Virus record (IMG/VR): IMGVR_UViG_2534681878_000012 | Coordinates: 1-18,609 of that record | Reading direction: 5' to 3' (one strand) | Length of the DNA stretch: 18,609 nt | Origin: a virus | Taxonomy: Duplodnaviria; Heunggongvirae; Uroviricota; Caudoviricetes | Shown here: positions 14,470 to 15,661 of the stretch, in pieces | Layout: every line of letters starts with the position of its first letter | Numbering within the stretch: the stretch's first letter is position 1 | Translations under genes and position numbers: made by a program | Notes under the pieces: model-generated | Seen by the model: the letters and a program-made list of their open reading frames with translations, nothing else | What the model was told of the DNA's origin: nothing | Database searches by the model: none

Positions 14470-14844
14470 ATGCCCATAGATTTGGTTTTACCTTACCCGC
14501 CAACGGTGAACACCTACTGGCGACGTCGTGGCAGCACATATTTTATCTCGGAGGAGGGAAAGCGTTATCGCCGGGCTGTGGCGCTTATTGTTCGCCAGCA
14601 GCGGCTGAAATTAATCCTGTCCGGAAGGCTGGCGATAAAGGTGATTGCAGAGCCACCGGATAAGCGTCGTCGCGACCTGGACAATATCCTGAAAGCACCG
14701 CTGGATGCGCTGACGCATGCGGGAGTGTTAATGGACGATGAGCAGTTTGATGAAATCAATATCGTTCGTGGTCAGCCAGTATCTGGTGGACGTCTGGGGG
14801 TGAAGATTTACCCCATAATGCTTGAAGGGCAGGTCAAAAAATGA
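14470..14844 (+). CDS. rusA: RusA Holliday junction resolvase
   Basis: ...LPYPPTVNTYW...PDKRRRDLDNILKAPLDALTHAGVLMDDEQ... matches remembered RusA catalytic region; AAGAGG RBS; lies just upstream of Q. Confidence 0.8.
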   Translation: MPIDLVLPYPPTVNTYWRRRGSTYFISEEGKRYRRAVALIVRQQRLKLILSGRLAIKVIAEPPDKRRRDLDNILKAPLDALTHAGVLMDDEQFDEINIVRGQPVSGGRLGVKIYPIMLEGQVKK

Positions 14845-15661
14845 AACTGGAAGATTTACCGAAATACTACTCCCCAAAATCCCCCGGCCTGACTGATGCA
14901 TCGGCCTCAACGTCGAAAGATTCGCTGAGTATCACTGATGTGATGGCCGCGCAGGGCATGACACAGAATTGGGCTGAGATGGGGTTTTCTGCGTTCCTTG
15001 GGAAAATGGGCATTAGTATGAATGACAGAGAGCGGGCAACAGAATTGCTGACAGAATATGCACTCAGTCGGTGTGATCGCGTGGCGGCGTTAAGAAAACT
15101 CCCGGCAGAAATAAAACCGGCAGTGATGCGTATTATGGCTTCGTATGCGTTTGAAGATTATGCCCGTAGCGCGGCGAGCAAAAAACAGTGCCCCTGTTGT
15201 CACGGAAAAAATTTATTGAAAGCGAGGTTTTTACAAACAAGATCCAGTATCCGGATGGTAAGCCGCCAGTGTGGGCAAAGTGCACAAAAGGCGTGTATCC
15301 GTCTTACTGGGAGGAATGGAAAAAAGTCAGGGAGGTGGTAAAAGTTGCCTGTCCGGAGTGTGGAGGGAAGGGGGAGGTTTCCACCGCCTGTAAAGATTGT
15401 CGTGGGCGCGGTGTTGCCATTCATCGTGAAGAGTCGGTAAAACGTGGTATGCCTGTTATCAGAGACTGCCAGCGTTGTGGTGGTCGTGGCTATGAAAGAT
15501 TACCTTCAACGGAGGCATTTAATGCCATATGTAATGTAACCGATGCCATATCTCTTGATACATGGAAAAAAACAGTTAAACGTTTTTACGATACGCTGGT
15601 GGTGCAGTTTGATATTGAAGAAGCATGGGCAGAACAACAACTGAAAAAGGTGACCAGATAG
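14841..15661 (+). pseudogene. Lambda-Q-family late antiterminator, split by a frameshift in an A6 run
   Basis: Track ORFs 14841..15341 and 15188..15661 overlap in different frames. Adding one A at 15206-15211 gives one ORF with HSPKSP, DSLSITDVMAAQGM, FEDYARSAA, four CxxCxG(K/R)G motifs and a lambda Q-like C-terminus. ATG overlaps the rusA stop. Confidence 0.6.

Follow-up and report, generated by a model that had tools for sequence, protein, structure and literature searches.

A known relative of the gene analyzed here is the late-gene antiterminator Q of phage lambda, a protein of 207 aa with two CxxCxG(K/R)G motifs, as the initial annotation of this DNA had rightly stated. Pfam family PF03589 is the Q-lambda family (PMC9388147). 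Besides lambda Q, two longer forms of the antiterminator serve as references for the present comparison: a 273-aa form represented by WP_033803818.1 and annotated as "antitermination protein" or quuQ, and the 250-aa YdfT/QuuQ of Qin-like prophages (WP_001047111.1). A further point of reference for the Cys motifs is the central zinc finger of DnaJ (PF00684), which has four CxxCxGxG repeats and two zinc ions.

The window analyzed in this work, 18,609 nucleotides in length, is the entire contig AKLI01000026.1 of the PA22 draft assembly GCA_000267085.1 (2012), and the host of the lambdoid prophage with the split Q gene is E. coli O157:H7 strain PA22. The Q gene is preceded by a DUF968 gene and by rusA, the stop codon of which overlaps the ATG of ORF1 (ATGA). 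As the initial annotation had reported, Q is split by a one-base difference in an A run, so that the record contains two overlapping ORFs with exactly A6 at 15206-15211 (Table 1) and the single Q frame is broken at this site. Addition of one A fuses ORF1 and ORF2 into an 822-nt ORF, and the merged product, for which about 273 aa had been expected, is a 273-aa protein identical to WP_033803818.1. From 15206 on, ORF2 follows the genuine frame of Q residues 123-273, which covers the conserved C-terminal body and three exact CxxCxGxG motifs. The homology to lambda Q runs on across the ORF1/ORF2 junction in two frames, and therefore the two ORFs are parts of a single broken gene rather than two frames that overlap by chance. 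The 166-aa product of ORF1, EIN90145.1, is recorded in exactly this form on AKLI01000026.1 only.

Table 1. Features of the Q locus and homopolymer indels of the window
Feature	Position	Strand	Remarks
rusA, Holliday-junction resolvase	14470..14844	+	PF05866, E=3.5e-17; overlaps the start of Q by 4 nt
ORF1	14841..15341	+	166 aa; genuine Q N-terminus in residues 1-123, out-of-frame tail past A6 in 124-166
ORF2	15188..15661	+	157 aa, GTG start; -1 frame relative to ORF1
Frameshift site, A6 homopolymer	15206..15211	+	context CACGG AAAAAA TTTATT
Cys-motif region	15189..15490	+	four motifs
Motif 1, CPCCHGKK	15189-15212 once corrected (CPCCHGK(K) 15189-15211)	+	at the frameshift; K replaces the last G
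Motif 2, CPECGGKG	15350-15373	+	exact CxxCxG(K/R)G
Motif 3, CKDCRGRG	15389-15412	+	exact CxxCxG(K/R)G
Motif 4, CQRCGGRG	15467-15490	+	exact CxxCxG(K/R)G
Lambda PR'-like late promoter and putative Q-loading (qut) region	15667..15706	+	from alignment with lambda downstream of Q
-35 TTGATT	15667-15672	+	PR'-like promoter
Extended -10 TGgTAAATT	15686-15694	+	PR'-like promoter
AACGAT -10-like pause element	15701-15706	+	at the predicted transcript start
Predicted intrinsic terminator, tR'-like	15742..15767	+	7-bp GC-rich stem and T7 tract
Indel T7->T6	1089		versus FDAARGOS_293
Indel T->TT	1324		versus FDAARGOS_293
Indel A3->A2	2066		versus FDAARGOS_293
Indel A7->A6	2235		versus FDAARGOS_293
Indel C6->C5	5205		versus FDAARGOS_293
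Indel A7->A6	15206		versus FDAARGOS_293; breaks Q

The naming of the gene as a Q antiterminator in the initial annotation was well founded, since the protein belongs to the Q-lambda family itself: (i) PF03589 matches residues 24-111 of ORF1 (E=1.9e-21, 76.4 bits) and residues 62-149 of ORF2 (E=3.8e-29, 101.1 bits), and the corrected protein reaches 168.7 bits in two stretches at a cut-off of 26.7, lambda Q itself having the same two-stretch pattern; (ii) the corrected protein and lambda Q (NP_040642.1) share 32% identity in BLASTP (E=3e-41), and the lambda Q chains of PDB entries 7UBM (E=3.9e-41), 7UBN, and 4MO1 are matched as well; and (iii) HMMER and MAFFT agree in pairing residues 1-113 with the same positions of lambda Q, and residues 182-273 with lambda Q 116-207. 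These comparisons place the locus among the ordinary lambda-type late-gene antiterminator genes of prophages, in the 273-aa, QuuQ-like subfamily, with an antitermination activity that is predicted by homology.

Between the two aligned regions, the 273-aa protein contains an insert of ~66 aa relative to lambda Q (residues ~114-181), which consists of motifs 1 and 2 and a linker. Compared with lambda Q, the merged Q does have two additional Cys motifs; the claim that all four are of the CxxCxG(K/R)G type holds for motifs 2-4, which are exact, and fails for motif 1, CPCCHGKK, where the final G is replaced by K. The zinc site of lambda Q aligns to motifs 3 and 4, and residues C184, C187, C210, and C213 are invariant in all three proteins (the 273-aa Q, YdfT, and lambda Q). 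The 250-aa YdfT/QuuQ type has a shorter form of the insert, and isolated phages carry the insert as well. The suggestion that the extra zinc-finger repeats are unusual is not borne out: the four-motif form is standard in ~2,480 complete E. coli genomes and recurs in isolated phages and YdfT/QuuQ. Thus, the two extra CxxC motifs are the normal architecture of a very common subfamily of E. coli Q proteins.

By analogy with the DnaJ-like motif, motifs 1 and 2 probably bind a second zinc ion. Weak matches to the Pfam and NCBIfam DnaJ models extend over Q residues 163-218. The DnaJ_CXXCXGXG model (PF00684) gives 31.4 bits on ORF2 and 30.6 bits on the corrected protein, where three repeats are exact, and both scores fall below the cut-off of 32.7. 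A single-sequence AlphaFold2 model of the protein has a mean pLDDT of 35.5 and a pTM of 0.20, values too low for interpretation. Two PHROG families match separate parts of Q, namely, phrog_25523 (166 positions) residues 1-163 and phrog_19003 (114 positions) residues 160-273. The pair suggests families built from split forms of the 273-aa Q in phage datasets; the break in these forms possibly lies at a place other than 15206-15211, in the A6 run at ~15320-15325.

The state of the A run was compared across complete genomes. Of 5,426 complete E. coli genomes, 2,496 gave a megablast match to 14841-15661, with a coverage of at least 80% in 2,477, and the gene is present at 99% identity or more in 463 records. 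In the best matches (99.8-99.9%), 822 nt align to the 821 nt of the query, and the annotation there is an intact "antitermination protein" CDS. Intact alleles have A7, with GGA AAA AAA TTT encoding G-K-K-F, and the A7 allele, annotated as quuQ, is also found at 99.9% identity in the Stx2a phage Stx2_EH1910. In the isolated phages mEp460_ev081 and vB_EcoS-813R8, which likewise have an 822-nt single ORF, the site reads GGGGAAAAATTT, that is, A5 encoding G-E-K-F. The comparison of run lengths with intact homologs, which had been proposed as a check, thus gives A7, or A5 in isolated phages, and a single ORF; two separate ORFs are not the conserved state, the split arrangement being rare. Across these homologs, it is the single ORF that is conserved and not the A run itself. 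A further search used a 40-nt query with the A6 run at its centre, for which seeding is possible only across the run. The exact A6 40-mer of the window was found in none of the 5,426 complete E. coli genomes, and the query returned only two diverged copies, in UM146 and MLI104K2, both of which are marked "frameshifted" by PGAP.

Over its full length, the window is closest to E. coli O157 FDAARGOS_293 (NZ_CP022050.2), with 99.9% identity over 18.6 kb. The complete alignment of the two contains 8 substitutions and 6 indels. All six indels are changes of homopolymer length, five of them contractions, and all six are private to the window in a comparison with 4-6 other relatives, whereas about half of the substitutions are common to some relative. 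Five of the six frameshift genes that are intact in FDAARGOS_293 and encode an exonuclease, DUF1482, a 69-aa ORF, a DnaT-like replication protein, and Q; the DUF1482 gene is marked frameshifted in two other relatives as well. The effect depends on run length: the window has shorter versions of 4/7 of the 7-base runs of the reference (three through deletion, one through an edge substitution), versus 1/25 of the 6-base runs. Two of the private substitutions, both absent from the relatives examined, are a G at 15740 (A in the relatives), two bases before the terminator stem, and a T->A change at 16426 that turns a T7 run into T6.

Six private indels versus ~4 private substitutions, length-dependent and nearly always contracting, favor homopolymer miscalling. 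Such an indel pattern would not arise by natural decay in a prophage with 99.96% identity to its relative elsewhere, and the whole contig looks error-prone at homopolymers. The A6 run of PA22 is probably a homopolymer under-call made in the 2012 draft sequencing or assembly, in which case the true state of the gene would be a single 822-nt ORF with A7. The initial annotation had considered a broken Q, a sequencing error, and a slippage site side by side; among these, the error is favored by the five further private homopolymer differences, four of which break genes, and programmed frameshifting finds no support. A literature search found no statement on the platform with which PA22 and the DEC-collection drafts were sequenced; 454 pyrosequencing may have been used but plays no part in the argument. 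Two of the six indels (A3->A2 and T->TT) affect very short runs and are less typical of flow-based homopolymer error.

The same error pattern, with contracted alleles at the Q site, is seen in other records. A near-identical 166-aa product is encoded in at least six draft assemblies of the DEC collection (with adjacent GCA numbers), in AP019708.1 and LK931556.1, and in short Logan contigs, all of them with A6. One DEC draft contig from the same period, compared with a finished genome of 99.8% identity, has A7->A6 at the Q site and further homopolymer miscalls of A5->A4, T6->T5, and A6->A5. Between AP019708.1 and six finished O145 genomes, the only two differences over 8.5 kb are A7 contractions, both within Q. 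The second A7 run of Q (GGAAAAAAACAG), at 15566-15572, is intact in the window and is A6 in AP019708.1 and LK931556.1.

If the A6 allele of PA22 is real, replication slippage in A7 would have made Q a pseudogene in this strain, with no antitermination at tR', the late and lysis genes off, and a cryptic prophage as the outcome. An identical contraction is inherited elsewhere, as UM146 and MLI104K2 carry it in genes marked "frameshifted" and the UM146-type 166-aa product recurs in at least 10 independent sequencing runs or assemblies from unrelated projects; this recurrence shows the A run to be a true hotspot of mutation, and the A7->A6 change at the Q site is, on the sequence record and for one lineage at least (UM146), a genuine heritable pseudogenising mutation. 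The truncated PA22 product would retain only residues 1-123 of Q and lose the conserved zinc site and the C-terminal body, that is, the core of lambda Q. The prophage, moreover, already shows decay that is common to its relatives, namely, an internal stop in a TerB-family pseudogene and a frameshift in the ead/Ea22 gene. Nevertheless, the exact PA22 product is known from a single contig, no finished genome has the A6 40-mer at 100% despite the 463 records with the gene at 99% identity or more, and the ratio of six private indels to ~4 private substitutions, with 4/7 heptamers shortened, would be unnatural unless PA22 were a mismatch-repair mutator. On balance, we regard a real A6 mutation in PA22 as unlikely, although it is the most serious competitor of the under-call.

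The two shared lesions concern other genes of the window. The TerB-family gene at ~15860-16261 (+) has an in-frame stop (…ADGECEAS*KAKIEQ…), and the same stop is annotated in finished relatives; it is therefore a genuine shared pseudogene. In FDAARGOS_293 and two O145 genomes, the ead/Ea22-like gene at ~7648-8023 (+) bears the annotation "frameshifted"; as the window and FDAARGOS_293 agree at every position between 7095 and 15206, the frameshift is common to both and is probably real.

A third reading takes the two-ORF state as functional, by -1 ribosomal frameshifting on A_AAA_AAT, by transcriptional slippage, or as a phase-variable switch of the late genes. ORF2 indeed lies in the -1 frame, GG A_AAA_AAT formally is an X_XXY_YYZ slippery heptamer in the frame of ORF1, and A6 alleles recur on several sequence backgrounds with identities from 92% to 99.9%. 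The surroundings of the heptamer speak against it: the predicted folding energy of the next 79 nt is -12.1 kcal/mol (z=+0.66), with 144 of 200 shuffled sequences at least as stable, and no Shine-Dalgarno-like element was seen upstream in the sequence. The split state is rare, and the isolated phages have A5 with G-E-K-F in a single ORF; besides, at 6-7 bases the run is short for transcriptional slippage or phase variation to be efficient. A functional two-ORF arrangement is accordingly very improbable. Programmed frameshifting of Q was rejected because the downstream structure is no better than that of shuffled controls, the run is not conserved, and the split is rare. A Q made of two separate polypeptides was also rejected, given that the sole start of ORF2 is a GTG without an obvious ribosome-binding site, that the split falls inside motif 1, and that the arrangement is not conserved.

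A more far-reaching variant would make the A7 run of Q a hypermutable contingency tract, with reversible A7<->A6 changes switching the late operon in EHEC and other E. coli. Such a tract would account for the same contraction on many independent backgrounds, and the switched operon would comprise the lysis genes, the nanS-like esterase, and the neighboring sRNA region; we give this idea hardly any credence.

Returning to the corrected gene, the region immediately downstream of Q resembles the lambda late control region. The stretch GGTAAATTTG...AACGATGGG is conserved with lambda downstream of Q, and TAAATT and AACGATGGG align to lambda PR'. A generic promoter scan made no call at 15667-15706, where 8/12 matches were counted manually. 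The terminator at 15742-15767 aligns to the T-tract end of the lambda 6S terminator, and the leader RNA predicted from these elements is ~65 nt long, shorter than the lambda 6S RNA of ~194 nt. The order of late promoter, pause element, and terminator expected for a member of the Q-lambda family is thus found at this locus, with a holin downstream in the nearest relative. By analogy with lambda, we assign putative promoter/qut and terminator functions to these elements. Under this model, (i) intact Q would bind a Q-binding element in the PR'-like promoter 15667-15706, (ii) it would join RNA polymerase during its sigma-dependent pause at the AACGAT element, and (iii) it would carry the polymerase through the terminator into the downstream genes. 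Read-through would reach the TerB pseudogene, DUF3927, the STnc100/AgvB sRNA region, the nanS-like (SASA) esterase gene, and the holin and lysis genes.

Several RNA genes were observed in the window. Downstream of Q, between DUF3927 and the SASA esterase gene, the sRNAs STnc100 (16433-16623, +; 145 bits) and AgvB anti-GcvB (16624-16685, -; 96.5 bits) lie back to back, both as Rfam gathering-level matches. In other parts of the window, the DicF antisense RNA (1837-1888, -) adjoins dicB, and the sok antitoxin RNA (11524-11698, +) overlaps the hokD toxin gene (11696-11851).

The gene family, the four-motif architecture, and the frameshifted alleles at the A run have already been annotated in public genomes. 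The biological weight of the split Q in PA22 is small, and its value is cautionary: unless reads support it, a frameshift at a run of at least 6 bases in this contig, or in comparable assemblies of the 2012 era or from long reads only, should not be taken as a sign of prophage decay. If A6 were the true state, the PA22 prophage would be predicted to be unable to express its late genes, which amounts to ordinary prophage domestication; an A6 that is not an artefact would otherwise be an ordinary pseudogenising slippage of the kind annotated in other genomes.

Comparison of the PA22 locus with the known systems reveals different degrees of similarity. The closest one is the gene for WP_033803818.1 in FDAARGOS_293, the DNA of which is identical over 14841-15661 except for one extra A in the run, and the flanks are common to PA22 and the WP_033803818.1/quuQ relatives (DUF968, rusA, Q, TerB pseudogene, DUF3927, and SASA esterase). 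FDAARGOS_293 and Stx2_EH1910 differ from PA22 in having A7 and a single intact ORF. The alleles UM146_RS25440 of UM146 and NL420_RS13955 of MLI104K2 share with PA22 the A7->A6 contraction at the same site and a 166-aa product, whereas their Q genes have only ~92% DNA identity and lie in another prophage background, followed by a DNA methyltransferase gene; furthermore, the UM146 A6 allele is corroborated by many independent datasets and the PA22 allele is not. YdfT/QuuQ of the Qin-like prophages (39% identity, E=6e-59) has four Cys motifs as well, but its insert is shorter and lacks an A7 run at the equivalent position, and its flanks differ, with no rusA between DUF968 and Q. With the DnaJ zinc finger, Q has in common a CxxCxGxG-type repeat in four copies; in contrast to DnaJ, motif 1 of Q is without the final Gly, there is no J domain or chaperone context, and the zinc stoichiometry is a predicted one. 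Finally, the PA22 Q resembles lambda Q in the PF03589 matches on both halves, the conserved N-terminal region and C-terminal body, the four invariant Cys residues at the zinc site, and the position of the gene just upstream of a PR'-like promoter (TAAATT -10), an AACGAT pause element, and a terminator, and it differs from the 207-aa lambda protein in being 273 aa long once corrected, with the ~66-aa insert and its two additional CxxC motifs, and in the frameshift of the gene as recorded.
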